DNA from: a virus
Taxonomy: Duplodnaviria; Caudoviricetes
IMG/VR virus record: IMGVR_UViG_3300026549_000036
Reading direction: 5' to 3' (one strand)
Length of the DNA: 64,000 bases
Shown here: piece by piece, positions 2,851 to 61,165 of the stretch
Numbering within the stretch: position 1 is the stretch's first letter
Layout of the letters: the number at the start of each line of letters is the position of its first letter
Notes under the pieces: generated by a model
Databases searched by the model: none
Told to the model about the DNA's origin: nothing
The model's input: the letters and a program-made list of their open reading frames with translations, nothing else
Program-made: the position numbers and the translations under genes

Positions 2851-3357
2851 TTGGAGGACGGTACTGATATGGCTTATCCACGTAAGAAAATGACTATGGA
2901 CGATGCTATTAAGATAGCAAAGAAGAACGGTTACAAAATTCAGGGCAAAGCAAAACAGAAGCTCCCATCATTGTTGGGACCTGTATATGAACTCTTTGAA
3001 GGCAGAGAGTCAATGTTCAGGCGTATCATTAAGGACCTGAATTTCAAAGTAACAAAGCGCGGTGATTTCACTAGCGGTAATTTCTGTGACGAAGTTCACG
3101 ATAACAAAGAAATTACTATGATTATGATGAAGACTGAACCGTGTTTCTTCGGTCTGTTCAAGAATACAGAAGTATATATGCCAGCGGGATTTGAAGTCCG
3201 TCAAGGCGAATCTGAATACTACATTCACCACACAAAGAAGGACAACATTAAAATTACAACCTTCTCTCAGGGCGAAAAGCAGTTGAAGAAGTTGCTTAAG
3301 GACTATAAGAGATGCTTGGACGAACTGAAGATTAAGGAACTACAAGCGGATTTCTAA
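2851..3357 (+). CDS. DF-tail family protein
   Basis: ends KIKELQADF*; probable start 2869 after GGAGG. Confidence 0.7.
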   Translation: MEDGTDMAYPRKKMTMDDAIKIAKKNGYKIQGKAKQKLPSLLGPVYELFEGRESMFRRIIKDLNFKVTKRGDFTSGNFCDEVHDNKEITMIMMKTEPCFFGLFKNTEVYMPAGFEVRQGESEYYIHHTKKDNIKITTFSQGEKQLKKLLKDYKRCLDELKIKELQADF

Positions 3358-3358
3358 A

Positions 3359-4213
3359 ATGGATTTAGTTGATATACTCGGCAATACTTTTGATTATTTG
3401 TTAGAACTTCCTAACAGAGTTAAGAAGTGTGTTCACGAACAAGTTACACACGAAGGAAGGAATAATCTAATTGAATACAAACGAAAGAAAGCCATTATAG
3501 ACAAACTAAAAGAAAAGTACTGTTTGACTGGTATGGATAGTGAGTCATGGTGCAACATTGAGCTTGAATTCCAAGATAAAAAATGGAGTGTAATTTATTG
3601 CGAAAATGCATCTTCCAATATGGATGACCATCATTTCAGTTATATTCTTGATTTTCATTGGAAATGGCCTGAACCAACTGACCCAAATTCACGCTGGGCA
3701 TATTTGCCAAAAGATTGTCCAGACGATTATTATTTAACTTGGGATAACCCAGTACCAATTAGAGAAGATGCTACATTTGAAGAAGTAGAAGCAATTTTAC
3801 TTCGTTTAATGGAACGATTTAAAGAACTCAAATCTGAATACAAAGAAAAGAAAGCAGCAGATGATTTTGACCCAACTGCCGCCTTGTTTGAAAGTCTTAA
3901 ATCACATTATCATTTAATAGAACCTGAAAAATCTATAAATGCTACCAGATATGCTTACTCACCTGACATTAGATATTTCGTGATTTCGTATTGTAAAGCA
4001 CGAAACAAAATTTATGTTCCGTCTGGTCTGGAACAACAGGAAATAGTTTTGGGTGGTCTGGAAACATTTACATTACCCGATTGTTGGGAAATGAAGTGTA
4101 ATGAAGAAACTATATCTGCTACCACATTTGACGAATACAAAAAGTATCTTGATGGTATATTGAAACAGTACAAGAACCTAGAACAAAGTAAATGGGAAAA
4201 ATATGAACTATGA
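3359..4213 (+). CDS. Two-module protein with internal DF motif
   Basis: internal YKEKKAADDF followed by a second module. Confidence 0.6.
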   Translation: MDLVDILGNTFDYLLELPNRVKKCVHEQVTHEGRNNLIEYKRKKAIIDKLKEKYCLTGMDSESWCNIELEFQDKKWSVIYCENASSNMDDHHFSYILDFHWKWPEPTDPNSRWAYLPKDCPDDYYLTWDNPVPIREDATFEEVEAILLRLMERFKELKSEYKEKKAADDFDPTAALFESLKSHYHLIEPEKSINATRYAYSPDIRYFVISYCKARNKIYVPSGLEQQEIVLGGLETFTLPDCWEMKCNEETISATTFDEYKKYLDGILKQYKNLEQSKWEKYEL

Positions 4214-4749
4214 CCGATGAAGAAGTATTTGCCGAAAAAGAACTTAGAGAATGGGTATTAGACGATGTAATGAAGTGGCCTGAATGGCACGGTCTACAAA
4301 GTTTTTCAAACTATGAACCTGGATTTTTATTTAATACAAAATCAGGAGATTATAGTGTAACTAAATCTGTTGCATTAAGTGAGCATTTGCCTTCTACATA
4401 TATTTTTACTTGTAGTAGATTGTCATTTAATGAAGCAGACCCTTACTATGCTGATATTATACCGTTCCATTGGAGATTGAACAATGTTAAACAAATCTAT
4501 CAACTTGAATCTACAGTTGGTGAATCCAATAATTTTAAGAAGTTAATTACTGATAAAGATATTGTTCCTGTTTGCAAAGTTAAAATGAAAGAAATCGCAA
4601 AAGATTTTGACAAATACTATAAGTTCATACTCAGTCATGAAGATAAATTTGTAGAATGGAATAATATGCTTCTTGAAGCTAGAAAATTCTATGCTAAAAT
4701 CCAAAAGAACTTTAATGCGGAGTTAAGAGCGAATGGATATTTTAAGTGA
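4210..4749 (+). CDS. hypothetical protein
   Basis: ATGA-coupled ORF. Confidence 0.6.
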   Translation: MTDEEVFAEKELREWVLDDVMKWPEWHGLQSFSNYEPGFLFNTKSGDYSVTKSVALSEHLPSTYIFTCSRLSFNEADPYYADIIPFHWRLNNVKQIYQLESTVGESNNFKKLITDKDIVPVCKVKMKEIAKDFDKYYKFILSHEDKFVEWNNMLLEARKFYAKIQKNFNAELRANGYFK

Positions 4750-5173
4750 TATAATAGATTTTTTATTTAACCGCAAGAAAAAACAAAATGAAGAAATCCG
4801 AACTGCGATGGAAAAAATTACTCCATACAAGTTTTTTCAAGAATTAGCTGATTATGCTCAGTCATTAGGTTTCGCAGTCGCAGAAGGTATTAGAGATAGT
4901 GGTTTTTCTTTAGAAGAACCAAACTATGCTGCACATGGTATACAGTTTAGAATGTATGGAATGATTGTAGCAGTTGGTTTAAATACTATATTGACTGATC
5001 GTTATACTGCAGGAATCTATTTTACAAGTGGTAAAGAAAGTGGTGGATTTTCAGGACAATTCACAATTACTACTTTAAAAAAGTGTAAAGAAGATTTAGA
5101 TAAATTAGTAGTCAGACTAAAAGAAAATCATCAACAAATTAAATTAGATAGCATTAACGAAGATTTTGTATGA
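4733..5173 (+). CDS. DF-tail family protein
   Basis: ends KLDSINEDFV*. Confidence 0.7.
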   Translation: MDILSDIIDFLFNRKKKQNEEIRTAMEKITPYKFFQELADYAQSLGFAVAEGIRDSGFSLEEPNYAAHGIQFRMYGMIVAVGLNTILTDRYTAGIYFTSGKESGGFSGQFTITTLKKCKEDLDKLVVRLKENHQQIKLDSINEDFV

Positions 5174-5532
5174 CATTAGACGATTTTTTCCAACAGTTAC
5201 ACGATTTTGGTACTTCAATGAATTTGAATGCAGATGAATTGTATAGTGAACATTCACTTCAGTCCAAAATAAATCAAAATAAAGACTTCAAACCAGATTA
5301 TGTAAAGAACGGAATTGAACTTGATAACAAAGATTGCTATATAGTTTTTATTGCAGTCTATCAACGAGAAGAAAACCAAGTCCGATATATGAACTGTGAA
5401 CAACAATTAAGACTTTGTCAAGTAGACGAAGTAGGATTGGAACTGTGTAAACAGAGTATTATGGATGGTATCAGAATACGAAAAGAAGACCAGAACCAAT
5501 GCCGATTAGATAAAATTAACGATGATTTTTAA
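5170..5532 (+). CDS. DF-tail family protein
   Basis: ends RLDKINDDF*. Confidence 0.7.
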   Translation: MTLDDFFQQLHDFGTSMNLNADELYSEHSLQSKINQNKDFKPDYVKNGIELDNKDCYIVFIAVYQREENQVRYMNCEQQLRLCQVDEVGLELCKQSIMDGIRIRKEDQNQCRLDKINDDF

Positions 5533-9693: not shown

Positions 9694-10053
9694 ATGAAAC
9701 TAACTGTTGAAAATGCGGTTGAGATTGCGAAAAAATATAACTTCGCTTATGACGAAGATTTAGGGGAAATTGTTATTCCTAGTAATATATGGATTGATGA
9801 TGACGATTTGGGTTTTATGCGACTTGAAACTGGTATTGATGGTCTTGAATTTAATTGTGCTTATGAATTTGGAATTACAGCACTGAAAAGTGGCAAATTT
9901 GGGTTTCATACTTCTACATTTAGGAACATTACAACAACAGAAGAATTTGAAGAAAACATTAAAAACTTTTTGTATTTAATTGAATTAGCAAAACCACTTG
10001 AAAAGAAATATGCTGAACAAGTTAAACTGAATAAGATTAGTGGAGATTTCTAA
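9694..10053 (+). CDS. DF-tail family protein
   Basis: ends KLNKISGDF*. Confidence 0.7.
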   Translation: MKLTVENAVEIAKKYNFAYDEDLGEIVIPSNIWIDDDDLGFMRLETGIDGLEFNCAYEFGITALKSGKFGFHTSTFRNITTTEEFEENIKNFLYLIELAKPLEKKYAEQVKLNKISGDF

Positions 10054-10346
10054 TGGTTGAAAATCCTGTAGCAGAACAAAGATTACGAACAATGTGTATG
10101 AACTGGTGTTTCTTACAGGACCACACATTTTTATCTAAGTTGGATTTGAACGGCTATAAGAAAATGCGATTTGATTTATACAAGAAACTAATTAGTCATC
10201 CACAGTATGAAACATTAGTTAAACCGGCTTTTGAAGAATTTAAAAAATCTGATGGTTGTGAAAAAGCATTCAACAAATGCCAAACATTTGTGTTTAAACT
10301 AATGGATTTGATTAGCAGAGAAGATAAAATTGTTGAGGATTTTTAA
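10053..10346 (+). CDS. DF-tail family protein
   Basis: ends REDKIVEDF*. Confidence 0.7.
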   Translation: MVENPVAEQRLRTMCMNWCFLQDHTFLSKLDLNGYKKMRFDLYKKLISHPQYETLVKPAFEEFKKSDGCEKAFNKCQTFVFKLMDLISREDKIVEDF

Positions 10347-10720
10347 TGCTTACTCCTTGCGAAGCTATTGATGTTGTTCGTAAACTATCTGGGTTTATGT
10401 ATTTTGACTTAGACGGGTTTCTTCCGACTGATCCTACTTTGTTTGCTATTACTTTACATGACCCAGATTTTTATGCAAGTGCTACTGTAATTGAGTATCA
10501 GTTTGATAAAACAACAAATGATTTAACTAAATGCCACAGCAGAAAAATTTTTAATTTATTCTTTGTTTTAAAGGATAAAATCTATTCTAGTTTTAATCCC
10601 GAAGACATTACGATAAATAATAAAGATGATTTAGAAAAGTTTTTATTAGATATTAAATATAAATTAAAACTTGCTAAAGAAGAATTGAGACTGTCTAGAC
10701 TTAAAAAGGATTTTGAATGA
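10346..10720 (+). CDS. DF-tail family protein
   Basis: ends RLSRLKKDFE*. Confidence 0.7.
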   Translation: MLTPCEAIDVVRKLSGFMYFDLDGFLPTDPTLFAITLHDPDFYASATVIEYQFDKTTNDLTKCHSRKIFNLFFVLKDKIYSSFNPEDITINNKDDLEKFLLDIKYKLKLAKEELRLSRLKKDFE

Positions 10721-11148
10721 TTACAGTTAATGAATTTAAACAATTAGCGGCTGATACAGGTTTAATGTTTTGGGAAAACGAAGCATTATTTTATAAGAGA
10801 GAAACAACCTATTATCTAAGTTATCCAATGCCAATGTTTAGAGAGAATTGTGAAGATGATGAAGATTACAAAATGAAAAGTGCTGTAATCAGTTTAGCAC
10901 CATACAAAGACCCACCTGAAATTTATATTTATGGTAATATACTTTACGATTTTGACCATCTTGATAAACTGGTTGAAGGTAAAGAAATTTACTGTTACAA
11001 TATGATTTCTGCTTTGGAATACGATGACGGACTACAATGGAACAATAAAACTTATGAAGAAATTAGGGACGAAGTTCTAAAAGTAAAGAAAATGATTTTT
11101 GATAAACAACAGGAAATAAATCTTGAAAAAATAAAAGGAGATTTCTAA
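10717..11148 (+). CDS. DF-tail family protein
   Basis: ends NLEKIKGDF*. Confidence 0.7.
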   Translation: MITVNEFKQLAADTGLMFWENEALFYKRETTYYLSYPMPMFRENCEDDEDYKMKSAVISLAPYKDPPEIYIYGNILYDFDHLDKLVEGKEIYCYNMISALEYDDGLQWNNKTYEEIRDEVLKVKKMIFDKQQEINLEKIKGDF

Positions 11149-13222: not shown

Positions 13223-13483
13223 ATGTCTATCTATGACCGCGATTATATGAAAAACAGAAAGCCGAGCGAGCCGCGTCACAGTGAGCCTCGCAGGCCTTTC
13301 TTTGAATCAGATGACGATGACGATACTGACTATTATCTTGTTCAAATGCCGAAAGGTCTCGGACACGATTTATGGAAGATTGGAGTTATCGCATTTGTTC
13401 TTTTTGTGTTGCTTTGTTGTCCGTGTTTGGCAGTTTTGTTTGTTCCTATTTTTCTCGCAATTTTACTTTGGAAAACTCTTTAA
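13223..13483 (+). CDS. small membrane protein
   Basis: MSIYDRDYM start, C-terminal hydrophobic helix. Confidence 0.6.
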   Translation: MSIYDRDYMKNRKPSEPRHSEPRRPFFESDDDDDTDYYLVQMPKGLGHDLWKIGVIAFVLFVLLCCPCLAVLFVPIFLAILLWKTL

Positions 13484-13836
13484 TGACTGAAGAACAATTA
13501 AAAACATTTTTGCTTGCCGAACTAAAACCATTTGTTGATAAAGTATTCTGGGACTCAGATGGTATTTGGGCATCTGGAAAAAACAGTACATATCTCGCAT
13601 ATTACAAGCGTGATGTTTCTATTGCTAAACCAGGTCTGTATATCGCAAAATTCGTTAGTGACGATGGAGCAGTTGTTGATGAGAAAGGAGCATTGTATTG
13701 GGGTTCCTGGCCTGAAGAATTGAAAGTCATTCTAGATAACGATGACGAAATTCGCAGGAGAGTTTACAACATTATCAAACGGATGAAAGAAATTGAGAAC
13801 AACAAAAGAATGAAGAATATACAGAAGGATTTTTAA
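13483..13836 (+). CDS. DF-tail family protein
   Basis: TAATG start; ends RMKNIQKDF*. Confidence 0.7.
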   Translation: MTEEQLKTFLLAELKPFVDKVFWDSDGIWASGKNSTYLAYYKRDVSIAKPGLYIAKFVSDDGAVVDEKGALYWGSWPEELKVILDNDDEIRRRVYNIIKRMKEIENNKRMKNIQKDF

Positions 13837-14219
13837 TGTGTAAGAAAACCAGTAATGTTCCAGATAAAGTAATTAGTTTGGGCAAAACCCTAATAGAGTT
13901 TGCTAAACAGTGCGATTATATCTATTCCGAAATTAGCAACATTTATACTTATGGACTGGACATTGTGTCTAGACAGTTTATACTTGGTGATAAATATGCT
14001 TCTATTTTTAGTTTAGAACAAGTCGGAAAACACAACTGGAAAATAAGTTATTGGAATTCATATAAAGACGAAGATCTATCTTATCATTATTTCAAAGATA
14101 ATGAAATGGACTATAATAAAGAAGTTTCTCGCTGGACAAAATATATTCAAAATTTTAGCAAAAAGATGAAGAAAAAATCTATATTTGAGAGAGAACAGAA
14201 AATAAAGGAAGACTTCTAA
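13836..14219 (+). CDS. DF-tail family protein
   Basis: ends REQKIKEDF*. Confidence 0.7.
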   Translation: MCKKTSNVPDKVISLGKTLIEFAKQCDYIYSEISNIYTYGLDIVSRQFILGDKYASIFSLEQVGKHNWKISYWNSYKDEDLSYHYFKDNEMDYNKEVSRWTKYIQNFSKKMKKKSIFEREQKIKEDF

Positions 14220-14679: not shown

Positions 14680-15048
14680 ATGACAAAAGAAGAACTGAGA
14701 GATTATTGTTATTCCATTGGGTTGATTGACACCAAGTTCCCTATGTGGGCTGAATCTAACTACACTAAGGGATATAGATTCCCAAATGAATTTGTGAACT
14801 CAATGGATTTTATTGCTGCGTGGGATGAAGATAAACAGTGTGTTGTTGTAGCCAAATGTTGTGTAATTAACGAAGCATTCGTATATGAAGGACCGATTCG
14901 TATGGATGGCGCTGTAGCACTTTATAATGACGAAGAAATTAAATCTCACATAAACTATTTAATCACATCGGTTCAAGAAAACATTAAGTTTCTTAAATGG
15001 CGACAGATGAAAAAGAAAATTAAGAAAATGGAAGGAGATTTTGAATGA
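14680..15048 (+). CDS. DF-tail family protein
   Basis: ends KIKKMEGDFE*. Confidence 0.7.
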   Translation: MTKEELRDYCYSIGLIDTKFPMWAESNYTKGYRFPNEFVNSMDFIAAWDEDKQCVVVAKCCVINEAFVYEGPIRMDGAVALYNDEEIKSHINYLITSVQENIKFLKWRQMKKKIKKMEGDFE

Positions 15049-19830: not shown

Positions 19831-20142
19831 ATGATTAAGATTATAGACAACATAACAGTTATTCTTTGGAGATGGACACACCGAATTAAAAGGACAAATT
19901 TGATTCACGGCCATCAGTTAACAACTAAAATTTACGCACCTCAATGGTGGTTTATTTGGTGGCATTATTACTGGTATGACATTGGTTATCAAGCAGTTGC
20001 TCCTGAAACATTTGACACAATGGCGGCAGCTTATGATTTCGTAACTCCCTATTGGATGCCTGAAAAAGAATGTAAACTAGAATTTTACAAAAAGCAGGAC
20101 GAACTTAACAAAAAGTTAGACGATGCTAATACAGATTTCTAA
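19831..20142 (+). CDS. DF-tail family protein
   Basis: ends KLDDANTDF*. Confidence 0.65.
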   Translation: MIKIIDNITVILWRWTHRIKRTNLIHGHQLTTKIYAPQWWFIWWHYYWYDIGYQAVAPETFDTMAAAYDFVTPYWMPEKECKLEFYKKQDELNKKLDDANTDF

Positions 20143-20210: not shown

Positions 20211-21145
20211 ATTAGCAAACAAGAGGTTTCACTATGGATTTAAATACATTTCTTCCCATCGCAAAGAAGTTTGGCTTGATTATAAACAAATGCCATAACG
20301 GAAGTGTGGAATTTTATCTGGACAAACACAAATACAATACTCCATATAACGGCTGGGTTTGTACTTATTTCAAGAAGTCAAATGAAATGGGTAGCCCCAG
20401 AATGAAAGTCCGTAAATTGGGATATGATGAAAATGCATTTGATTTGTGCTGGGGTTCAGATATAAATTTGAGAAATGATTTGATTTTTGATAATCCCAAA
20501 TATGTAGAAAAGGCTCTGACAGAAATGTTTAAGAGATTGGAAAAATTCAAAAGGAGATAACAAAATGGATTGGCTTAAGGCTCAACAAATTAGAACAGGT
20601 ATTCCACAAAACGCAACAGTCGCAGATTTGATTGCGATTTTACAGAAACTCCCGCAAAATTGGCCTGTAGTAAACGCAGACGAAGGACCATTGTGTGAGA
20701 TTGTGGTCGCAACTGACGGACGGGATAAACAGGTACAAGTTTACTAAGGACAGAAAATGACATATACTTTATATTTGGCTCTACTAATTCCAATTTTCTG
20801 CGGGGCGCTTGCGTGTTTCGTTGGTGCGATTTTATCGGCCACATTTGGAGATGATAAAGCACAAGAAAATTCCTTTGTGTATGGTTATGCTGGGATTGGA
20901 CTTGTCGTAACTGGGTTTATGATTGTTATTCTTTCACCTGACCGACCGACAATAATTGAGAACAGTTACTACAAAATTCTCAATTCTCGCCCGGAATGTG
21001 TGAAGGATGTAGTGAATAACGATTTTACAAATGTTTCATTGGATTGTGCTGAAAAATACATTAACTACAGGACAGATTCATTGAAAGCAGCAAAAGATTA
21101 TTTTGAAATCAAAGAACAGATTTTGAATAAATTGAAGGAGACAAA

Positions 21146-30719: not shown

Positions 30720-30937
30720 TGAATTTAGATGAAGTGAGAAGAATGATGGAAGAAAATGGTTTTAACCTTTGGGGTGTAACCACAGGTTCAACACAAAATA
30801 ATGATTCCGAAGAATTAGAAAAAGATAAGTTCACTGAAGAAGAATTTGACAAGGCTTGCGAAGATTTAGGCCTTGAAGATAGTGGGGAGGAATCGGACGA
30901 TGTGGACGATTTCTTTCAACGGCTCAATCAGGTTTGA
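30719..30937 (+). CDS. small acidic protein (EEF-x-K-x-CEE-x-GL family)
   Basis: KFTEEEFDKACEDLGL. Confidence 0.6.
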   Translation: MNLDEVRRMMEENGFNLWGVTTGSTQNNDSEELEKDKFTEEEFDKACEDLGLEDSGEESDDVDDFFQRLNQV

Positions 30938-44585: not shown

Positions 44586-44971
44586 TGGTTTACATTTGGG
44601 CAGCTAATAAATCTAAAACGATTATCAAACAACTTAATGGTTCTACATTTAGACTGGATGAACTTGTTCAAGTACAAATTGATGCGTTTACTCAAAATTT
44701 AACTTTCACTTTTGTCACAGACGAGAATGACAAATACACATTTGATTTGGATGTAAAAGTAGACCACGATGAAAGATGCTCTTTGCGTTATTTTGGAATA
44801 ACAAGTCCACAAAAACATTTCGCTACTGGAATTAACGGTATGAAAGGTAAAAATACAATGGAAGATTTGAACAAATTTATAAATTCTCAGTTAAATCCAA
44901 TTAGAGATGTGTTTGATAAAAAGTTTAAAGAAGAATGTAAGTTAAAAGGCATTGAAAAGGATTTTGACTAA
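44585..44971 (+). CDS. DF-tail family protein
   Basis: ends KLKGIEKDFD*. Confidence 0.7.
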   Translation: MVYIWAANKSKTIIKQLNGSTFRLDELVQVQIDAFTQNLTFTFVTDENDKYTFDLDVKVDHDERCSLRYFGITSPQKHFATGINGMKGKNTMEDLNKFINSQLNPIRDVFDKKFKEECKLKGIEKDFD

Positions 44972-45309
44972 TGACCAGAGATGAATACGAAGAAGTCTGT
45001 AAAAAATTTCCAGATTATCTTAATTTGACTGGTAGTGGTACTTGTTATATTAAAGGTGCTGCCACATTTGGTTTATACGAAGTAACAGATATTATTTACG
45101 AAGGTTGTGTTTTAGATGATAAAGTTATTGGTAAAGTTTGGTATAAGTGTTATAGTCCAGATAAAAAGACAATACAAACTAGGTCAAAAATTTGTTATAA
45201 TGCCAATACTAAAGAAGAATTTGAAAAGAAAATACAAGAATTTATAGAAAATTACAAAAAAGTTCAAGTTAAATTGAAACAAATAAATCTAAACAAGGAT
45301 TTTGAATAA
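44971..45309 (+). CDS. DF-tail family protein
   Basis: ends KQINLNKDFE*. Confidence 0.7.
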   Translation: MTRDEYEEVCKKFPDYLNLTGSGTCYIKGAATFGLYEVTDIIYEGCVLDDKVIGKVWYKCYSPDKKTIQTRSKICYNANTKEEFEKKIQEFIENYKKVQVKLKQINLNKDFE

Positions 45310-45683
45310 TGGGAATACCAATGCGGCGTGTGAAAAATAAACCAGCATTTACTTGTTATCCATATACAGAATTGAACTGGGTTTATGATTATTCATTGAA
45401 TAGTCTTGAACGAAAAATGTACTTTCATTTTATGAAGAGGTTAATGCCAATTTGTGAAGAACATGTCAGTGAATGGACTGATATGTTTGATTGTTTTGAC
45501 CCGTTCGGATCTGATTTAGAGATTGTTGTTTGGCGAGTAGTTATTCTATTGGGATATAAACCTTGGAACCAGTATTATTATGCTAAAATGGATGACGATA
45601 CTTTGTTCGCAATTTTAAACAAACGAATCAAAGAATTTAAAGCACAGCAGAAAGTAAAAAATATGGAGGCAGATTTTGAGTGA
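45309..45683 (+). CDS. DF-tail family protein
   Basis: ends KVKNMEADFE*. Confidence 0.7.
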   Translation: MGIPMRRVKNKPAFTCYPYTELNWVYDYSLNSLERKMYFHFMKRLMPICEEHVSEWTDMFDCFDPFGSDLEIVVWRVVILLGYKPWNQYYYAKMDDDTLFAILNKRIKEFKAQQKVKNMEADFE

Positions 45684-46014
45684 GCCTTGGATAAGTTCAA
45701 AGGAATTAAGAGATGTTGTGTATAAATTTTATAATACCGTCATATTAGACAGCGAAAGGAATAAAAGATTAGCCAAATGTATAGATGAAACTGAAATTAG
45801 AGAAATGCAGAACAGATATAAAGCATTATGGTGGAATGAAGCTGTAACACTTGTCATTATGGAGAAGATTTTAGGTGTAACTAATTTTTCCGAAACTGTA
45901 TTTAGTCAATTTATAAACCTAACTACTAACAAACTACTTGAGATTATTGACTACGGGATAAAAGAGTATCAAGTTAGGAACAAATTAAACAAACTTGAAT
46001 CAGATTTCAATTAA
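45676..46014 (+). CDS. DF-tail family protein
   Basis: ends KLNKLESDFN*. Confidence 0.7.
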   Translation: MSEPWISSKELRDVVYKFYNTVILDSERNKRLAKCIDETEIREMQNRYKALWWNEAVTLVIMEKILGVTNFSETVFSQFINLTTNKLLEIIDYGIKEYQVRNKLNKLESDFN

Positions 46015-46036: not shown

Positions 46037-46064
46037 TTGACAATAAAAATTTAAATTCTATATT
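46037..46064 (+). promoter_or_regulatory. sigma70-type promoter
   Basis: TTGACA-N16-TATATT; AAGAGGT RBS downstream. Confidence 0.7.
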
Positions 46065-48418: not shown

Positions 48419-48805
48419 ATGGCTGCTATGACACCCGAACTAAAAGCACGATATAAAGAACTTGGTATTCGCAATAGCACTTGGAGAGGCCCGAATGGTA
48501 AAGAATATGTTGTTTGTAGAGGTGGTGAATTTTATATGCACACGATCTGCGAAACATACGTTCCACGCCGATTTGTGATGGGAAAACCACAATGTAAGGC
48601 ACAAGGACTTGACCCAGAAGAAATGGTAAAATACATTGAGTATAAGGCACTCAGATATCACAGTTCTTATGGTGGTGGCGGTTATGAAAAAACAATTTCA
48701 TACAGTACAGTAGAAGAATTTAACAAACTGTGGGCTATGTTCCAGATGGGATATAAAGACGCTGAAATGCGAAACAAACTAAATAACATTAAGGAAGATT
48801 TCTAA
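48419..48805 (+). CDS. DF-tail family protein
   Basis: ends KLNNIKEDF*. Confidence 0.7.
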   Translation: MAAMTPELKARYKELGIRNSTWRGPNGKEYVVCRGGEFYMHTICETYVPRRFVMGKPQCKAQGLDPEEMVKYIEYKALRYHSSYGGGGYEKTISYSTVEEFNKLWAMFQMGYKDAEMRNKLNNIKEDF

Positions 48806-49081
48806 ATGACTTATTGGGAACTGGATAAATTAGTTGAAGAATTTGGTCTGAAAAAAGACCAAATACTGAACCGACTATATTATTCAAAACGCACAATAGG
48901 TAATTATTATTATAATTTTGCTAGTGATAACCCAGTTGTAAAAATTGAATTTTGTCAGTCTTCTATCAACACAAAGTATGTAAAAACTGCAAGAAAAGAA
49001 ATTATGCGACAAATTGAAAGAGTTAAAAAAGAAAAACTTGAAAACAAAATAAAACAAATTAAAGAGGATTTCTATGGCTAA
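48806..49081 (+). CDS. DF-tail family protein
   Basis: ends KIKQIKEDFYG*. Confidence 0.7.
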   Translation: MTYWELDKLVEEFGLKKDQILNRLYYSKRTIGNYYYNFASDNPVVKIEFCQSSINTKYVKTARKEIMRQIERVKKEKLENKIKQIKEDFYG

Positions 49082-50832: not shown

Positions 50833-51480
50833 ATGGCAATAGACCCACAATTATATCTTGACATAGCAGCTAACAATGTGGACCCGATGGTGTTTGAGTT
50901 TGATGACTTAGGCGACGGTCCGGGTCCAATGTTCGGTGGTATGGGTGTAAAGATTACTGGGACTTATGGCGGTGCACCAGTTGATGTATGCCGTGGTCCT
51001 TGTATTAGATACACACCAATGAAAACTGCTGAAGAAATTGAAGCCGAACAACAAGCAGAATACGAAGCAGAACAAGCTAGAATTAAATTAGAATACGAAA
51101 CTTGGACTAATAAATTCAAAGCAAATCATTATACAACAGAACTTTCTTTTATCTTTGGTAATTTGAACAAGCAACAGTTGAAATGGATAAAACATATTCT
51201 TGATACTGACGAAGATGCGACATACATTTATGCTGGAAACAAAGATAGAAGTGAATTTTTAAGTATAAACGATGTCTGCGCCCACGTTACAAAATCCAAG
51301 ATTAAAAATGGAAAACTTGTTTGTGAGATTGAATTTGATTATACAGATCCGGGTTTAAAACTTTTTCGTAATTGGCAGAATGGATTTGCCCCAAAGTTGA
51401 ATTTAAATACTATATTTGTGTATGATGAAAAGGACCCAAATTTACAGAACTTAAAATTTCTTTGCTTGGAGTTTGTATGA
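50833..51480 (+). CDS. hypothetical protein, possible degenerate prohead-protease (T4 gp21-like) fold
   Basis: INDVCAHVTK..IKNGKLVCEIEF..TDPG..L; preceded by CATAAATA. Confidence 0.3.
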   Translation: MAIDPQLYLDIAANNVDPMVFEFDDLGDGPGPMFGGMGVKITGTYGGAPVDVCRGPCIRYTPMKTAEEIEAEQQAEYEAEQARIKLEYETWTNKFKANHYTTELSFIFGNLNKQQLKWIKHILDTDEDATYIYAGNKDRSEFLSINDVCAHVTKSKIKNGKLVCEIEFDYTDPGLKLFRNWQNGFAPKLNLNTIFVYDEKDPNLQNLKFLCLEFV

Positions 51481-51911
51481 TAATCAAACGGAACGATTTT
51501 ACAACTTATTTAGAAAATCATATTACGAAAGAACAAAATCAGGTACTACAAAGTGTACCTGGTTTTCGTGTAAAGTATATAAATATGCTTTCAGTTCTTA
51601 CTGAAATTATGGAACGTGATTATCATTGGGCAAATAATCAAACATATAAGTCCAATTATTACGATTTAATTCCTGATACATTCAAATCGTATTATGCAGA
51701 AACATACGCAACAAGATATAAATTGTATTTCCACACTCAGTTTATGAAATTTCCATCTGAATGGATATATAAGTATACCAGTTTAATAAATGAAGGTTTC
51801 TTTGACTTTATAAAAACAAACGATTATGCAGATTTCTATAATATAGAATATCTGATAAAAATGATTGAAAACATTTTAAAAATTGCTAAATTTAGAATAG
51901 ATGACTTCTAA
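51477..51911 (+). CDS. DF-tail family protein
   Basis: ends AKFRIDDF*. Confidence 0.6.
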   Translation: MIIKRNDFTTYLENHITKEQNQVLQSVPGFRVKYINMLSVLTEIMERDYHWANNQTYKSNYYDLIPDTFKSYYAETYATRYKLYFHTQFMKFPSEWIYKYTSLINEGFFDFIKTNDYADFYNIEYLIKMIENILKIAKFRIDDF

Positions 51912-52284
51912 ACAACAAAACATAATTAAATTGCAAAACCTAGCAGTTGAACTAGGTTTGTTTTATTCCTATTTAAATTCTTATGAAACTGATGCAACCG
52001 GTGGTGAATTAGTTTTTACTTATAATTTAGAGGAATATAAACAATATCCAGTTAATAACAAATGTAGATTTATTATTAAACAGTGGTTCTTTTTGTGTGC
52101 TTATGTAAACAATTATGGAGAGTTTATTGTTCATACAAAAATACCTTATCCGGGATTTAATGAAAAAGTACATTTTAAATCATTTGAAGAAGTTAGACAA
52201 TATATAATTGACTATATGAGATACTCCAAAGAACATTTTGTAGATATGAAACTTGAGAAAATACAGTGGGATTTCAATGAATGA
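51901..52284 (+). CDS. DF-tail family protein
   Basis: ends KLEKIQWDFNE*. Confidence 0.7.
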   Translation: MTSKQQNIIKLQNLAVELGLFYSYLNSYETDATGGELVFTYNLEEYKQYPVNNKCRFIIKQWFFLCAYVNNYGEFIVHTKIPYPGFNEKVHFKSFEEVRQYIIDYMRYSKEHFVDMKLEKIQWDFNE

Positions 52285-52579
52285 AAACGAAGTTAAATCA
52301 TTTTTAACCAAATATAATCTTAAAATACTTGGAGTAGATAAAGAAAACATTTGGCCTTGTGTAATTGGAAAAAACGATATAAAATTAGGTTTTGTAAATA
52401 AAAAGTGGACAATTTATAGACAAGTATTTTATATTTCACTTGTAGATAGGTTTGACTGCGCAATAATGTTTGATGATTATAAAAAATGTTGTAACTTCTA
52501 CGAAACCGAAACTGATAAACATTTTAAAGAATTAAGAGAATTCCGAAAAATTAAACAAATACAGGAAGATTTTGAATGA
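52277..52579 (+). CDS. DF-tail family protein
   Basis: ends KIKQIQEDFE*. Confidence 0.7.
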   Translation: MNENEVKSFLTKYNLKILGVDKENIWPCVIGKNDIKLGFVNKKWTIYRQVFYISLVDRFDCAIMFDDYKKCCNFYETETDKHFKELREFRKIKQIQEDFE

Positions 52580-54623: not shown

Positions 54624-54980
54624 ATGAGAATTTACACTGACTATAACCCGAACACTCGGAATGCGGAACTGTTGTTTGGTTTGGAATATGACGAAAAGGT
54701 AGATAAGTTCTATATTGCGTATGTTTACATACCTAAGCCATCTGGAAATTATCCGCCAACTGCTGAAGATGAAGAAAAAATCTTTATGAGTTATTTGGAT
54801 TTTGATTTTTATAAGTGGCGCCTCACCAAGGACCCAAACGCAATTTATAAAATGGTTTTTCCGAACTGGGAAGGCAATTTTAAAGCGAACAAACATCGTA
54901 TTTGTTTGGATTTCTGCGGCTATGTTTCTAAAATGGTTGGTGCGTGGATGAGAGAAAGAAACATGACTGATGATTTCTAG
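54624..54980 (+). CDS. DF-tail family protein
   Basis: ends RERNMTDDF*. Confidence 0.65.
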   Translation: MRIYTDYNPNTRNAELLFGLEYDEKVDKFYIAYVYIPKPSGNYPPTAEDEEKIFMSYLDFDFYKWRLTKDPNAIYKMVFPNWEGNFKANKHRICLDFCGYVSKMVGAWMRERNMTDDF

Positions 54981-56233: not shown

Positions 56234-56299
56234 AGTAAACAAAAATTTACCAGATTTTTACGAATACTCATTGACAAAATGGGTATTTTTTTCTATATT
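56234..56299 (+). promoter_or_regulatory. Promoter module (second palindrome at 56196-213)
   Basis: AGTAAA-N6-TTTACC 56234-51, TTGACA 56271, N17, TATATT 56294. Confidence 0.8.
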
Positions 56300-56807: not shown

Positions 56808-57080
56808 ATGGAACCGATTTTTGATGTCAATACTTATATTGCTATTGATCAGTGGGGAACTTTAATTACTGGAGTTTCTGTTATTTTGATTTTTGCTTTT
56901 TTCCTTGTGCGTTTCGTTCCAGTTCTAATTTATTACAAAATCAAGGATTGGATTGATGACTATAAGCGACACAAGAAGTGGAAGGAAAACATTGAAAATT
57001 CTCCGAATGTGTTTGAAGAATTTACAAAGAAGCCCAAAACAGAAAAAGAACGACTGAAGGATATGAAGGAGGATTTTTAA
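56808..57080 (+). CDS. DF-tail family protein with N-terminal TM helix
   Basis: ends RLKDMKEDF*. Confidence 0.7.
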   Translation: MEPIFDVNTYIAIDQWGTLITGVSVILIFAFFLVRFVPVLIYYKIKDWIDDYKRHKKWKENIENSPNVFEEFTKKPKTEKERLKDMKEDF

Positions 57081-57346: not shown

Positions 57347-57724
57347 ATGAATGATTTAGTGGATTTATCAACACTATTTTTCAAACTGGTAGAAGATTAT
57401 CATTTGGAACTTCATTATTCCAAAGAAGCTAATTTGTATTCAACCCGTATTCCTGGAGACCAAAATCAGTTTGTAACACTCGCAGGTAGTTTGTTGAGTT
57501 TCGGTTATCTATTTGGAACTGAACCATATCTTATGGTAGCACAAACAATTTCAAGGAAAAATTTCTACACGAATAATTTGGTATATAAAATAAATTCCGA
57601 TGGTTTGGAAAAGGCTCTCCGAATGTATATTGAAGTTGTTATGCGAAGGTATGAAAAGCTGATGAAGAAATTGAAATCAGAATACGAACAAAGTAGATTA
57701 GATAAAATTCAAGAGGATTTTTAA
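57347..57724 (+). CDS. DF-tail family protein
   Basis: ends RLDKIQEDF*. Confidence 0.7.
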   Translation: MNDLVDLSTLFFKLVEDYHLELHYSKEANLYSTRIPGDQNQFVTLAGSLLSFGYLFGTEPYLMVAQTISRKNFYTNNLVYKINSDGLEKALRMYIEVVMRRYEKLMKKLKSEYEQSRLDKIQEDF

Positions 57725-58056
57725 TGGCTTGGGAATTGAAAAATAAAAAATTATCCAAAAGATTACACGAATTAGGACTGGTAGATGATGAAATGGGCTA
57801 CTGGTTCTATCCTCCATACAGCAATGCTTTTTGGGTAATTTCTTCTTATGGCGACTGTATTTCTTTGGTTGGTGGATTTACTTATGACAATGGCAGAATT
57901 ATTGATGTTGGCTTATCTGCCAAATATAATGTAGATGACGAAGATTTGATTATTAAACAAGTTAAAAAGATAATTTACGATTTTCAAAACTGTATGCTAC
58001 TATATAAGCAAGAAAAGGAACAGAAACGATTAGAAAAATTGAAGAAGGATTTTTAA
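57724..58056 (+). CDS. DF-tail family protein (paralog of 58056)
   Basis: ends RLEKLKKDF*. Confidence 0.7.
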   Translation: MAWELKNKKLSKRLHELGLVDDEMGYWFYPPYSNAFWVISSYGDCISLVGGFTYDNGRIIDVGLSAKYNVDDEDLIIKQVKKIIYDFQNCMLLYKQEKEQKRLEKLKKDF

Positions 58057-58400
58057 TGTATTCGCCAAAAATTACAAGCGACAGTTTGAGAAAGAAATTT
58101 CTAGACTTAGGTCTTCGTGAAGATGACGGTGGTTATTGGTATTATGACCCATTCAATAATAACGATTGGATGATTGCTTCGTATGAAGACGAAATAAGAA
58201 TTTCAACAAAAGTTACAGTTGATAAAAATGGCGAAGGTTATTTTGAAGTACTTGGTAATACATTAAATTGTGTAGATGATGAAGAAAAGATTTTAGAACA
58301 AGTTAATAAACTATTGAACCAAGTTAAGAGAATGGATCTGACGAAAAAGAAAAAGAAAATGAGAATGCGAATGAATAAACTTAAAAAGGATTTCCAATGA
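58056..58400 (+). CDS. DF-tail family protein
   Basis: ends RMNKLKKDFQ*. Confidence 0.7.
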   Translation: MYSPKITSDSLRKKFLDLGLREDDGGYWYYDPFNNNDWMIASYEDEIRISTKVTVDKNGEGYFEVLGNTLNCVDDEEKILEQVNKLLNQVKRMDLTKKKKKMRMRMNKLKKDFQ

Positions 58401-58753
58401 ATTCGGAAATGAAACGAATTATAGAATATGCCAGCACATTGGGGATTGTAAAACTTCCTTCGCCTAGTTTTTCTTATGGTGAGAAAGGTACTTATTATGG
58501 TTTGCCTGAATTGGTTGAAACTGCGTGGATAATTAGAGTTTATGATAATGAAAAAGAAATGAACATCGTTAAAGGTGCCTATATCAACGGTGACAATGAA
58601 GTTATGACTGGACAAGCAGTTGATTACACAACATTAAATTATAAGTTTCATTTAAAAAGGCTTGTTAATAAAATCCGAAAATTGGAATTGGATGTTAAAA
58701 AACTAAAAGAAGACGCACGAATTGAAAAAATGGAGAAAGACTTCAATGACTAA
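58397..58753 (+). CDS. DF-tail family protein
   Basis: ends RIEKMEKDFND*. Confidence 0.7.
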   Translation: MNSEMKRIIEYASTLGIVKLPSPSFSYGEKGTYYGLPELVETAWIIRVYDNEKEMNIVKGAYINGDNEVMTGQAVDYTTLNYKFHLKRLVNKIRKLELDVKKLKEDARIEKMEKDFND

Positions 58754-59147
58754 AAAAGAATTTCTACACATTTGTAAGAAATATAATCTTGTTACGAGGC
58801 AAGAGAAAGCTTGGGAAGGTAGCATTTATATTTCTGCTTATATCCCAGGAATGGTTTATGAACCTGAAGATACAGATAATGACAGTTTAGCAGTCTTTGA
58901 ATCAGAATCGTGGGATGACGATTTCGGAAAGGTAAAAATGTATGGTGGTTTAGATACTGAGTATAATGCGGTAAAACACATTACAACATACAGCTATGAA
59001 AATCACCGCACTGTAGATACTAGGGATCCGACTCAATTTGAACAAATTGTAGCTGGTATAATGCAGCGTTATAACACTATGAAATTGTTGGATAAGAAAG
59101 AAAACGAAAGAAATAAACTTATTAAATTACAAACGGACTTTGAATGA
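58746..59147 (+). CDS. DF-tail family protein
   Basis: ends KLIKLQTDFE*. Confidence 0.7.
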   Translation: MTKKEFLHICKKYNLVTRQEKAWEGSIYISAYIPGMVYEPEDTDNDSLAVFESESWDDDFGKVKMYGGLDTEYNAVKHITTYSYENHRTVDTRDPTQFEQIVAGIMQRYNTMKLLDKKENERNKLIKLQTDFE

Positions 59148-59443
59148 CATACAGAGAGTATATTAGACTGACCGAAAATTTTGGTCTTGAAAGAAAACAC
59201 GCCTGTTGCTATTATATGGGTCACTGGGTTTGTATCTTTTGGTTTGATAATTCAAGTGCTATAATGGATTCTGAAGAATTGCTAAATCATACTGGCATTG
59301 TCAAAATGGTAGATGACAGTGAGATTGTAAATGAAAGCACAGATAAAGAACAAATTAAAGATTTCATAATTAAACGAATGGAAGAAATTAAAGCTATTAA
59401 GGTTAATAAAAAACTAAAAACTATGGAGAAGGATTTTGAGTAA
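59144..59443 (+). CDS. DF-tail family protein
   Basis: ends KLKTMEKDFE*. Confidence 0.7.
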   Translation: MTYREYIRLTENFGLERKHACCYYMGHWVCIFWFDNSSAIMDSEELLNHTGIVKMVDDSEIVNESTDKEQIKDFIIKRMEEIKAIKVNKKLKTMEKDFE

Positions 59444-59798
59444 ATTAAAAGAACAATTTTTAGAAGTACTGAAAAACGAACCTCGTGTTACAATTCAAGA
59501 AGAAAGTGACAAAATAACAGTAGCTTTCATTAAAGGATTTGAAGAAGACGGAGGTTGGTGTTGTTATGATGAAGAAGATAACGAAATCCGAATTAACGGA
59601 GAAATCGGTATAAAAACAAATTATAAAGATGTTTGGATAAACAGCGATTACTCTTTTGATGGGTGTATAATTATTAAATCTATTAAAACCTTTAAGAAGT
59701 ATCTAAAATTTGCTTTGGGTGTTGCTGCGATTTATGAACAAGCTATCAAACAAATTAAGAACCTTCAACGATTGGATAAAATGGAAGATGACTTTTAA
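59436..59798 (+). CDS. DF-tail family protein
   Basis: ends RLDKMEDDF*. Confidence 0.7.
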   Translation: MSKLKEQFLEVLKNEPRVTIQEESDKITVAFIKGFEEDGGWCCYDEEDNEIRINGEIGIKTNYKDVWINSDYSFDGCIIIKSIKTFKKYLKFALGVAAIYEQAIKQIKNLQRLDKMEDDF

Positions 59799-60060
59799 TG
59801 AATTTTACAGTTTATATAAAGAAAGGGAAACTAAATACACTAAAATAATGGTTGAATCCATTTATAAGTTAGGACCGAGTACTTGGTGTTCAGACATTAA
59901 GACAAAGAAACTTGTTAGGATAAATTGGTCTGATAGTCAGATTAAATTTACCGAAATTTCTCTAGCCGAAGAAATGGAAAGGCGTAACCAGTATAAACTG
60001 TTAAATAAAATGTTCAAAGCACAAGAGAAACTGGAGCAAATGAACGATGATTTTCAATAA
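59788..60060 (+). CDS. DF-tail family protein
   Basis: ends KLEQMNDDFQ*. Confidence 0.7.
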   Translation: MTFNEFYSLYKERETKYTKIMVESIYKLGPSTWCSDIKTKKLVRINWSDSQIKFTEISLAEEMERRNQYKLLNKMFKAQEKLEQMNDDFQ

Positions 60061-60355
60061 CTTATCTGATATTCAAAGAACAGCAAAAGATTATGGTTTT
60101 GAACTTGAGAAGGGTTATGCGTCCGACATTATTTCCTATTATGTGAAATACGAACGTTATTCAGTCGCACACGTATGGATGCATAATAGACTGCAACAGT
60201 TCAAAATTCATTATGACGAACCAGTTAAAAGCTTTGAATACATTGAATGGTGTGATAAAGACAGATTTGAAGAATTTTTAAGGGTTGTCATACAACAGAA
60301 AAAGAAAGAAAAACTACAAAAGAAACTAGCCGAAATTAAAAAGGATTTTAGATGA
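60047..60355 (+). CDS. DF-tail family protein
   Basis: ends KLAEIKKDFR*. Confidence 0.7.
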   Translation: MIFNNLSDIQRTAKDYGFELEKGYASDIISYYVKYERYSVAHVWMHNRLQQFKIHYDEPVKSFEYIEWCDKDRFEEFLRVVIQQKKKEKLQKKLAEIKKDFR

Positions 60356-60849
60356 ACGAAAATCATTTTGCCAAATTAGCAAAGAAGTCGCCTTATTACT
60401 TCTATATTATGGAAACCCATTCAGGTGGTGGTTGGGTAAGGAATGAAAATGGAACTCCTTGGTTAGATGAATTCGGGAAAACTCATTTTATTCCTTCTAA
60501 AAAGCATTATATTGTTAGAGCTTATGTTGATGTGAATAAAAGACATTATAAAAAACTAGAAAATCACGGTGGTGGTTCAATTTATTTTACTTTTAATTTG
60601 GAAGAAGACTCAAAAATTAAAATGAACATTTATAGTTACTGTGATGAAGTTCATAAAATTACAAATGGTTTTTTGGGCTTGGAAAAATACATTTCTTATG
60701 GCGAATATAAAAAGATTTGTAAGAACGGACTTAGTGTTTCAAAGAAACAGTTAGATGAATGGTGTGCTGAACATATTAAAATTAACAAAGAAAAAGCAGA
60801 AGCATACAAACTAAAGAAAATGAATGAGGACTTTGATGGAGAAGATTAA
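60352..60849 (+). CDS. DF-tail family protein
   Basis: ends KLKKMNEDFDGED*. Confidence 0.7.
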   Translation: MNENHFAKLAKKSPYYFYIMETHSGGGWVRNENGTPWLDEFGKTHFIPSKKHYIVRAYVDVNKRHYKKLENHGGGSIYFTFNLEEDSKIKMNIYSYCDEVHKITNGFLGLEKYISYGEYKKICKNGLSVSKKQLDEWCAEHIKINKEKAEAYKLKKMNEDFDGED

Positions 60850-61165
60850 TTTACAGAAAATCTGCGATGAATGTGGGCTAATTTATCAGAAAGATAGTTC
60901 TAATATAGAAACTGGTTATTATAATGGGAAAGTAATTTTTCAGTTTGACCCAGGCCAGGTTGTGAGTACTTATAAGAACAATATAATATGTTTATCATCT
61001 GCTGCTATGAGTAAATATGGTTTAGATTTCGTTTATCCAAAACAAATTTACAATGATGATTACAATTATAATTTTTTGAAAAAGTCAATTACAGAAGCTA
61101 TTATTAAATACAAAGAGTTAATACTAGAAGATAAAAAACAGAAATTACACCAAGATTTTGAGTAA
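60836..61165 (+). CDS. DF-tail family protein
   Basis: ends KKQKLHQDFE*. Confidence 0.7.
   Translation: MEKINLQKICDECGLIYQKDSSNIETGYYNGKVIFQFDPGQVVSTYKNNIICLSSAAMSKYGLDFVYPKQIYNDDYNYNFLKKSITEAIIKYKELILEDKKQKLHQDFE

Follow-up and report, generated by a model that had tools for sequence, protein, structure and literature searches.

The window analyzed here, a stretch of 64,000 nucleotides (nt) of viral DNA (IMG/VR record IMGVR_UViG_3300026549_000036; Duplodnaviria, Caudoviricetes), encodes a large set of small proteins that share one C-terminal helix closing in Asp-Phe, the DF tail. In this phage clade, the DF-tail set accounts for ~30% of the genes, its proteins have a median length of 120 amino acids (aa), and all of its genes are currently orphans without known function. 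Our analysis establishes the set as a genuine and very large feature that is under selection at the protein level, restricted to one clade, and undescribed.

The DF tail and the level of its selection

Open reading frames (ORFs) were called by a mechanical procedure of our own, which yielded 154 plus-strand ORFs of at least 45 aa in the window; individual ORFs are named below by their start positions. Forty-five of these ORFs end in DF followed by 0 to 4 residues, whereas only ~3 such ends would be expected from the internal DF frequency of 0.0042. The original prediction had counted 45 plus-strand ORFs with DF ends, and our independent set contains exactly that number at coordinates that agree. 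The same tail closes 133 of the 410 ORFs of G001, a 210-kb IMG/VR contig from a relative of the window phage that was analyzed whole, and the share of the DNA taken up by DF genes is 25.5% in the window and 26.5% in G001. Taking both together, C-terminal DF was observed 178 times against 12.8 expected. This 13-fold enrichment is far above that of any other dipeptide, and the next most enriched C-terminal dipeptides, ED and KD, belong to the same motif. The three arrays described earlier, at 9694-11148 (4 genes), 42784-46014 (9 genes), and 57347-61165 (11 genes), are real, and a scan of the window genes bore out that the recognizable enzymes lack the DF tail. The hydrophobic segment of 56808 and the EEFV look-alike that ends the kinase at 63486 were likewise found as described.

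Alignment of the 178 tails on DF, with D numbered 0 and F numbered +1, defines the motif as a 16-residue helix, K-x6-[KR]-L-x-K-[ILM]-x-x-D-F, which usually lies 0 to 4 residues from the C terminus. Lys occupies position -14 in 86% of the tails, Lys or Arg position -7 in 89%, Leu, Ile, or Met position -6, Lys position -4 in 43%, and Ile, Leu, or Met position -3 in 83%. The motif is longer than the version first proposed, to which Lys at -14 has been added. Phe is the last residue in 55% of the members and is followed by 1 to 4 residues in 45%, and a free Phe carboxylate is therefore not required. To score the motif, a position-specific scoring matrix (PSSM) was built from positions -14 to -1, with DF itself left out, and was applied by leave-one-out scoring with a threshold of >5 bits. 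The pass rate was 87% for the terminal-DF proteins, compared with 1.2% for internal DF sites and 2.3% for other C termini. The scan for a C-terminal motif in the window and its relatives that had been proposed thus finds DF enriched, and the PSSM separates the tails from the controls. Of the 45 window ORFs, 40 pass, three (10053, 30417, and 54624) are borderline, and two (22758 and 51462) fail clearly. The ORF at 22758 is out of PSSM register because of a one-residue insertion (its end reads MQEEDFG), and the DF end of 51462, which has no upstream motif and scores -23.7 bits, may be due to chance.

The claim that no family like the DF-tail set had been described held up against Pfam, PHROG, PDB, and literature searches. 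None of 88 DF members matched Pfam at E<=0.001, and at E<=0.1, 10 members gave only noise below curated cutoffs. None of the 88 matched PHROGs, and single-protein scans concur. A 28-column profile of the tail produced no meaningful match to PDB sequences, with a best E of 0.86. We know of no comparable expansion of a phage gene family to ~30% of genes. Our literature searches, which were only partly aimed at gene-family expansions, returned no description of such a family, and a paper on the Jug phages, which encode RpoC, contains none of the terms paralog, C-terminal, tandem, and gene family (PMC12880540).

In translationally coupled genes, the last codons double as a Shine-Dalgarno (SD) sequence and a stop/start overlap, and the motif could in principle be a by-product of this arrangement. 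In the coupled DF genes (n = 146), an SD-like 4-mer is found in codons -2 to +1 in 74%, and codon -1 is mostly GAG, AAG, or GGA, creating GAGGAT, AAGGAT, or GGAGAT six nt before the ATG. However, in the uncoupled genes (n = 30, >40 nt to the next gene), SD-like 4-mers drop to 23%, codon -1 becomes GAA or AAA, and its residue is more varied, whereas Lys at -14 (90%), Lys or Arg at -7 (93%), Leu at -6, Ile, Leu, or Met at -3, D, and F are as frequent as in the coupled genes. The bias is confined to position -1, D is encoded by both GAT and GAC, F is encoded about equally by TTT and TTC, and Lys at -14 sits 42 nt upstream, well outside any SD. In addition, DF is conserved in each of the 40 reciprocal-best pairs formed by window and G001 ORFs. 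Translational coupling is refuted as the main cause, accounting only for the preference for E, K, or G at -1, and the probability that we leave to it is negligible. Both expectations of the original prediction, that the motif persists with different codons and without a coupled downstream gene, and that the enrichment survives the overlap with the ribosome-binding site (RBS), were borne out. A DNA-level role, in which the conserved 3' end serves as a recombination handle for cassette shuffling or array expansion, is also highly improbable. Such a handle would suit the tandem arrays with their uniform junctions and the varying gene content of close relatives, including the 5 of 45 window members that have no ortholog in G001. 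However, at identical-residue positions of paralog tails, the same codon is used in 58% of cases versus 53% expected (25% versus 25% for Leu at -6), so the similarity of the DNA does not exceed what the protein sequence demands, and the stretches of identity are too short to support homologous recombination. Codon sharing this near to expectation argues against DNA-level constraint or gene conversion and places selection at the level of the protein. The tail motif is selected at the protein level, independently of the overlapping RBS.

Bodies, relatives, and expression of the DF-tailed genes

Two types of body were modeled by AlphaFold 2 (AF2). In the model of the 59436 group, an alpha/beta sandwich, an N-terminal helix is followed by a seven-stranded sheet and a C-terminal helix of 37 residues (predicted local distance difference test, pLDDT, 80); the model of the 42784 group is an all-alpha bundle with a 27-residue terminal helix (pLDDT 85.5). 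Many members have an N-terminal helix ending in G[LF]. Searches with tail-less sequences by phmmer and jackhmmer did not unite the bodies and gave small clusters only. A body-only hidden Markov model (HMM) made from independent representatives matched 53 DF versus 6 non-DF proteins at E<=0.01 and covered ~38% of the DF proteins after iteration. Moreover, a profile search of 1.84 billion cluster representatives returned 35 matches at E<=0.001, 32 of which are small DF-tailed proteins (DF plus 0 to 6 residues, 93-129 aa), most of them starting with the helix that ends in G[LF]; in two more, DF is followed by a longer extension, and one match, to a long coiled-coil protein, is a false positive. 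This search confirms the family and adds no annotated relative. Taken together, the profiles and predicted models describe one large putative alpha/beta core family plus several other body classes with a common tail, and beta-rich and membrane-anchored forms appear to exist as well. The earlier claim that the same tail sits on unrelated domains therefore stands insofar as there are at least two predicted folds and the anchor-like 56808, whereas its wording of "many unrelated" subfamilies was overstated without being wrong, as ~38% of the proteins share one body; the modular reading as such survives.

Neither model had a Foldseek match at E<=0.001 in the PDB, and the 59436-type core had none in BFVD. 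In the ESM Atlas, the structure search retrieved only the family's own cluster and the feature search only unnamed viral clusters. When the core body was compared by VIA-align, the similarities included Med17C (Z 6.7), the TriTu immunity protein (Z 6.2; 82 of 87 residues, root-mean-square deviation 2.6), frataxins (Z 4.7-4.9), and the C-terminal domain of T4 MotA (Z 4.5-5.1; Foldseek E 0.29), all of which, with Z of 6.7 or less and this E value, are in the range that the tool itself classes as common arrangements. Any likeness of the core body to the alpha+beta sandwiches of frataxin/CyaY, the MotA C-terminal domain, and immunity proteins may be no more than such an arrangement, and it is not accompanied by sequence similarity.

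A profile search retrieved 103 metagenomic proteins, all close orthologs, and DF is retained in 102 of them. The median ratio of nonsynonymous to synonymous substitution rates (dN/dS) is 0.26 for DF genes versus 0.16 for other genes (p = 0.005), and no gene exceeds 1. Since DF is kept in every ortholog pair and dN/dS is 0.26, the DF ORFs are real genes, which are under purifying selection but evolve faster than the other genes. The members without a G001 ortholog indicate that the arrays turn over.

The family is present in contigs with a sliding clamp that shares at least 63% identity with the G001 clamp, namely L017/L018, L020, L021, and G004; DF tails end 14-21 of ~37 ORFs in L017/L018 and 23 of 152 in G004. 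In a sister clade (clamp ~55% identical, GC content 42%), DF ends are at background (1 of 132 ORFs in G002, 3 of 117 in G003, and 0 in L015), and the core body is all but missing. The enrichment of C-terminal dipeptides in this sister clade never exceeds 2.7-fold, and EAxVLK ends on a few of its ORFs were accordingly dropped as an alternative tail. On the evidence of these sequences, the DF-tail family is best regarded as an innovation of one uncultured clade.

The window has a GC content of ~35%, and all its substantial ORFs are on the plus strand. Close relatives of its DNA came from metagenomes only (L001, a 409-kb ENA scaffold, and G001), and INPHARED, which covers cultured and GenBank phages, contained no match to the window DNA, to one DF protein, or to the clamp. 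Sample labels suggest a ruminant gut origin for the relatives' metagenomes. G001 encodes gp32, a DnaB-like helicase, an NAD ligase, a gp43-like PolB that is 27-31% identical to T4-like and cyanomyophage polymerases, and a gp45-like clamp (PHROG 223, E 1e-11). The presence of gp32, the PolB, and the clamp places the phage on a distant branch of the T4 supergroup. The recognizable genes of the window encode an NAD synthase, M18 aminopeptidase, GroEL, CoaE-like kinase, Thg1, SPFH protein, metallophosphatase, GT2 glycosyltransferase, T4-type RNA ligase, and AAA_33 kinase, together with an intein-split radical-SAM gene, and these are auxiliary functions typical of a very large phage. We read the window as part of the early region of an uncultured ~400-kb phage distantly related to T4.

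Exact matches to the sigma70-type promoter TTGACA-N17-TATATT occur 11 times in the window, all on the plus strand, compared with 0.34 expected. A promoter-type site follows each of the DF gene ends at 20142, 39072, 46014, 54980, and 61165, and DF arrays tend to stand last in their units. The hairpin at 61204 folds as RNA with -16.1 kcal/mol (z -6.4). In contrast to these promoters, the T4 late motif TATAAATA is not enriched in the window. The sigma70-type promoters, which are predicted, and the lack of enrichment of the late motif suggest, by analogy with T4, that the DF genes are early genes transcribed by unmodified host RNA polymerase. Composite terminator-promoter sites were seen at 20170-20215, 26020-26070, 53385-53430, and 61190-61235. 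In each, a hairpin (z -6 to -7) holds the -35 TTGACA in its stem or loop, the T-run forms the spacer, and CTATATT is the -10, such that one element of ~45 nt ends one early unit and starts the next.

Docking and competing roles of the tail

The C-terminal helix carries two hydrophobic stripes, one upstream at -26, -22, -19, -15, and -12 and one in the motif at -6, -3, and +1. The hydrophobic moment points to 266 degrees for positions -26 to -9 versus 114 degrees for -7 to +1, and the phase difference is 135-225 degrees in 88 of the 178 sequences versus 0-90 degrees in 12. For the core body, structural matches extend only to about residue 100 of 120. Provided that the helix runs on without a break, as modeled, the opposite phase of the two stripes means that the conserved stripe faces away from the body, which suggests that the tail stripe is an exposed docking surface for intermolecular contact; this is the principal argument for such a surface. 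The conserved face would then present K, K/R, and D on one stripe and L, I/M, and F on the next, directed away from the body, and could link many early modules to a common partner encoded by the phage or the host. One clade has expanded small proteins to ~30% of its genes, diversifying their bodies while keeping the tail. Plausible classes of partner include a protease or chaperone that governs lifetime and a replication or transcription platform. Among the best 25 of 50 Pfam families matched in G001, there is no obvious hub such as Clp or Lon, and the survey shows a small heat-shock protein (sHSP), GroEL, and M18 and M16 peptidases to be present. That a constant docking helix connects a diversified set of early binders or effectors with a single shared partner is, in our judgment, the likeliest reading, although it is about evenly poised between right and wrong. 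Its stronger form, in which the DF helix is a universal address tag by which more than 150 diversified early modules per genome plug into a single hub, is more tentative, and we lean against it.

Several points weigh against docking. The exposure of the tail is deduced from the hydrophobic phase and from matches that end near residue 100 of 120. In close orthologs, the tail is 86% identical and the body 84% (p = 0.15), so that only the motif positions stand out. About 40% of the members have one body, and others may have diverged too far to be detected; the pattern is therefore in part that of a paralog family in which the best-conserved segment has been retained. An exposed L/I/F stripe could serve self-association just as well.

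In such a zipper, DF proteins would form homo- or hetero-oligomers through the shared helix without any separate hub. Leu at -6, Ile, Leu, or Met at -3, and Phe at +1 occupy a/d-like positions, Lys at -14, Lys or Arg at -7, and Asp at 0 occupy g-like positions on one face, the stripe is predicted to be exposed, and many members are coexpressed from common units. However, conservation spans only about two heptads, which is little for a stable coiled coil, the g-like charges (+ + -) are not self-complementary in a parallel pair, and more than 150 paralogs that pair promiscuously would be difficult to keep in check; we consider a zipper unlikely. It is more doubtful still that the members are a single, very diverged paralog family whose tail is an intramolecular C-terminal helix cap kept for folding. 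The N-terminal helix ending in G[LF] and the tail are indeed common to many members, the body-only HMM joins DF proteins far beyond the few non-DF ones, and frataxin-type alpha/beta sandwiches pack terminal helices on their sheet. Yet the all-alpha model of 42784 and the anchor-plus-tail protein 56808 cannot share such packing, the conserved K-14, K/R-7, and D0 are charged residues of the solvent-exposed type, the tail stripe is ~150 degrees out of phase with the body-packing stripe, and structural matches end ~20 residues before the C terminus.

The tail could also be a sliding-clamp-binding motif that tethers small proteins to the clamp on DNA, as in T4 gp43, gp33, and gp55, and the clamp was the most promising candidate for a partner. 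T4-family phages bind gp45 via short hydrophobic-acidic C-terminal epitopes, which are joined by a divergent, unstructured linker, and gp33 is a small protein of 112 residues (PMC2988020). The phage has a gp45-like clamp, and the DF tail ends in an acidic residue and Phe at or near the C terminus. While the DF tail shares this extreme C-terminal position, it lacks the adjacent aromatics of h-x-x-a-a, with its invariant Asp in the place of the first aromatic, and it is absent from the polymerase of the relative G001. Instead, a different C-terminal motif, [LFWP]-x-[DE]-F-F-x, is found in G001 on PolB, two DNA methylases, a metallophosphatase, and three small ORFs; on the polymerase and the methylases it takes the form [LF]-[DEN]-[DE]-F-F-x. 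These FF-tailed proteins have neither K-14 nor K/R-7. The FF ends in G001 are GLDDFFV, GLNDFFE, FDEFFS, FEDFFV, WNEFFI, LTEFFE, and EDVQFF, and a methylase of the more distant L017 ends in LTDFFE. PolB itself (919 aa, PF00136), with its GLDDFFV end, has a DF-tail PSSM score of -6 bits. The FF-type tail is probably the true clamp ligand of this clade, and its presence on the polymerase and methylases weakens the clamp as a hub for DF proteins. The DF helix departs from this FF tail in length, charge, aromatic content, and predicted conformation. Furthermore, the DF motif ends a continuous 27-37-residue helix in the AF2 models in place of an epitope on a flexible linker (PMC2988020), and ~30% of genes competing for three clamp sites would be hard to reconcile with replication. 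A co-fold of the G001 clamp (3 copies) with the DF protein 59436 scored 0.01 against a mark of 0.32, which speaks neither for nor against binding. We regard clamp binding by the DF tail as very unlikely.

The FF tail resembles the PIP box (cf. LDDFF in FEN1), and the AAA_33 kinase of the window (63486-63914) closes with LNEEFV, a variant with a single Phe. If the FF tail is a clamp ligand, the tethering of DNA methylases to the clamp would be of interest in its own right. The clamp genes also vary. L017, a 313-kb relative, has two clamp-like genes in tandem (L017:9998-10720, 240 aa; L017:10765-11544, 259 aa), both ending in ...DLTL[YF]..., and in G001 a single clamp gene precedes an FF-tailed ORF of 117 aa. 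Among clamp homologs there are a 240-aa form and a 256-aa form, which are distinguished by an N-terminal extension.

If the DF tail is indeed a docking tag, one peptide and one partner would provide a handle on about one third of the genes of an abundant, uncultured group of large gut phages, with a bearing on the role of the many small early genes of large phages. Phages would then, like large eukaryotic viruses, build adaptor-style libraries of variable binders with a constant dock. As a universal address tag, the tail would be the bacterial-virus counterpart of the poxvirus ANK/F-box libraries and would point to a previously undescribed form of host takeover or counter-defense. Even on a cautious reading, a family that occupies a quarter of a 400-kb genome, turns over between relatives, and is under purifying selection is unusual for a phage. 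It is also a rich source of new small folds and of possible inhibitors of host functions.

Window members, their surroundings, and comparison with known systems

The DF-tailed ORFs of the window are collected in Table 1 together with borderline members, predicted promoter sites, and the FF-tailed ORFs of relatives.

Table 1 DF-tailed ORFs and associated features (window coordinates unless a contig is named)
Feature	Coordinates	Strand	Details
DF-tail ORF, core alpha/beta body	2851..3357	+	Ends LQADF; body-only HMM match; G001 ortholog keeps DF
Two adjacent DF-tail ORFs (4733-5173, 5170-5532)	4733..5532	+	Tails INEDFV, INDDF
Array of 4 DF-tail ORFs (9694, 10053, 10346, 10717)	9694..11148	+	Directly after GroEL; tails ISGDF, VEDF, KKDFE, KGDF
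Two DF-tail ORFs (13372-13836, 13836-14219)	13372..14219	+	Tails IQKDF, IKEDF
DF-tail ORF, core body	14680..15048	+	Tail MEGDFE; full-length phmmer link to 58397; body HMM match
DF-tail ORF, Trp/Tyr-rich hydrophobic body	19831..20142	+	Last in transcription unit; tail ANTDF; terminator/promoter at 20182
Possible member, core body, no DF	20234..20560	+	Ends KRLEKFKRR; body-only HMM match
Two paralogous DF-tail ORFs (21587-21922, 22758-23108)	21587..23108	+	Non-DF genes between; full-length phmmer E 1.5e-15
Two paralogous DF-tail ORFs (30417-30719, 30962-31285)	30417..31285	+	Tails LFGDF, FQGDF; phmmer E 1.6e-19
Short DF-tail ORF, 62 aa	32642..32830	+	Tail TSDFA; phmmer E 2e-5 to 30962
Possible degenerate member	34188..34676	+	K-x6-R-L-I-K-I-Q-S, then D-E for D-F plus 7-residue extension
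DF-tail ORF, core body, last of unit	38734..39072	+	Tail MEKDF; promoter at 39075; representative P0136 is its ortholog
Predicted sigma70-type promoter, TTGACA-N17-TATATT	39075..39103	+	Starts unit with 39870 and the 42784-46014 array
DF-tail ORF, 156 aa	39870..40340	+	Tail LEKDFT; G004 ortholog keeps VEKDFT
Array of 9 DF-tail ORFs, mixed bodies	42784..46014	+	phmmer paralog clusters; AF2 model of 42784
Predicted sigma70-type promoter	46037..46064	+	Directly after the 9-gene array
Two DF-tail ORFs (48419-48805, 48806-49081)	48419..49081	+	Tails IKEDF, IKEDFYG; both match body HMM
Three DF-ending ORFs (51462, 51901, 52253)	51462..52579	+	Tails RIDDF, QWDFNE, QEDFE
DF-tail ORF, borderline motif, last of unit	54624..54980	+	Tail MTDDF; PSSM 4.6 bits; promoter at 55022
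Predicted sigma70-type promoter	56271..56299	+	Starts unit with 56808 and the 11-gene array
DF-tail ORF, membrane-anchor-like segment, then tail	56808..57080	+	Hydrophobic stretch of ~26 residues
Array of 11 DF-tail ORFs, mostly core alpha/beta	57347..61165	+	Starts 57347, 57724, 58056, 58397, 58722, 59144, 59436, 59710, 60047, 60352, 60824; AF2 model of 59436; orthologs keep DF
Terminator hairpin, TTGACA in loop, T-run, CTATATT	61204..61232	+	Ends the 11-gene array, starts next unit
FF-tail ORFs	L005:16734-19490, L005:16052-16747, L004:1551-2078, L004:9434-9784, L004:9013-9294	-	

The true start of the ORF at 2851 is probably an internal ATG that gives MTMDDAIKIAKKNGY. The ORFs at 4733 and 5170 are weak paralogs of each other, metagenomic orthologs of the latter keep DF, and a gap of 78 nt after 5532 means that there is no coupled gene downstream. 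Junctions in the 9694-11148 array are of the TAATG/ATGA type. The ORF at 13372-13836 has an N-terminal hydrophobic segment, and the 30417/30962 pair, between which lies the non-DF ORF 30719-30937, is apparently beta-rich by eye. In the 42784-46014 array, all-alpha members (42784, 43861, 45676, and probably 43140) stand among core alpha/beta members (44202, 44971), 45309, and the pair 43481 and 44585, which by eye appears beta-rich. About 60 metagenomic orthologs of this array keep DF, and the lack of G001 orthologs for 43481, 43861, and 44971 indicates turnover within it. The anchor-like ORF 56808 ends in K-P-K-T-E-K-E-R-L-K-D-M-K-E-D-F and retains Lys at -14 beside a Pro. The possible degenerate member at 34188 scores 21 bits on the PSSM without DF, and its G001 ortholog is alike. 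Of the three DF-less look-alikes of the family (20234-20560, 30719-30937, and 34188-34676), two match the body-only HMM.

A cluster of protein quality-control genes lies at 5611-9605, with DF arrays on either side. It comprises an M18 aminopeptidase (5611-6975), an Hsp20 small heat-shock protein that ends in IEI (7452-7922), and GroEL (7992-9605). Elsewhere in the window, the radical-SAM gene is split by an intein (40315-42794), with a separate ORF (40883-41935) between the halves; Pfam locates the N-part of the intein in 40315-40785 and its C-part in 41886-42794. Two long ORF-free stretches interrupt the otherwise tightly packed window, at 32127-32301 (175 nt) and 46618-46954 (337 nt), and an Rfam scan of the window gave no matches.

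Among known systems, the DF tail can be compared with the clamp motif of T4 gp43, gp33, and gp55 and with the PIP box, as each is a short motif at the extreme C terminus of unrelated proteins of one phage and combines acidic residues with Phe. T4 gp33, at ~110 aa, is as small as the DF proteins, and the phage is distantly related to T4, as seen from its PolB, gp32, and gp45-like clamp. However, the DF tail is a 16-residue Lys-rich helix with one aromatic residue, whereas the T4 motif is a hydrophobic-acidic peptide on a flexible linker, and there are more than 130 carriers per half genome compared with a handful in T4. Other terminal elements offer partial likenesses. MinD and FtsA carry C-terminal amphipathic membrane-targeting helices, which resemble the DF tail as terminal amphipathic helices with Lys and Leu, Ile, or Phe, and the C-terminal tail of single-stranded DNA-binding protein (SSB-Ct) and T7 gp2.5 and gp4 have acidic C-terminal Phe tails, with a likeness in the terminal acidic residue plus Phe. 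A lipid-binding helix of the MinD/FtsA type was rejected in view of the invariant Asp, the near-neutral charge, the frequent E at -1 and -10, and a stripe of only three residues, and an acidic tail of the SSB-Ct or T7 gp2.5 type was rejected because the DF tail is a Lys-rich predicted helix and because 45% of the members continue past the Phe, whose free carboxylate such tails need.

A conceptual likeness is found in the poxvirus ANK/PRANC and BTB-Kelch proteins, where a large virus has many paralogs, each joining a variable module for binding to a constant C-terminal dock by which one host machine is recruited. In contrast to these adaptors, the DF set has no ankyrin, F-box/PRANC, or BTB domain by Pfam, its constant part measures 16 versus 40-50 residues, and a bacterial host has no SCF ligase. 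As gene families, African swine fever virus (ASFV) MGF110, MGF360, and MGF505 and the paralog expansions of giant viruses likewise form tandem, fast-evolving arrays that are gained and lost between strains and take up a large share of the genome. However, ASFV-type families are held together by homology over whole domains, whereas the DF set is held together by a terminal helix on at least two different predicted folds.

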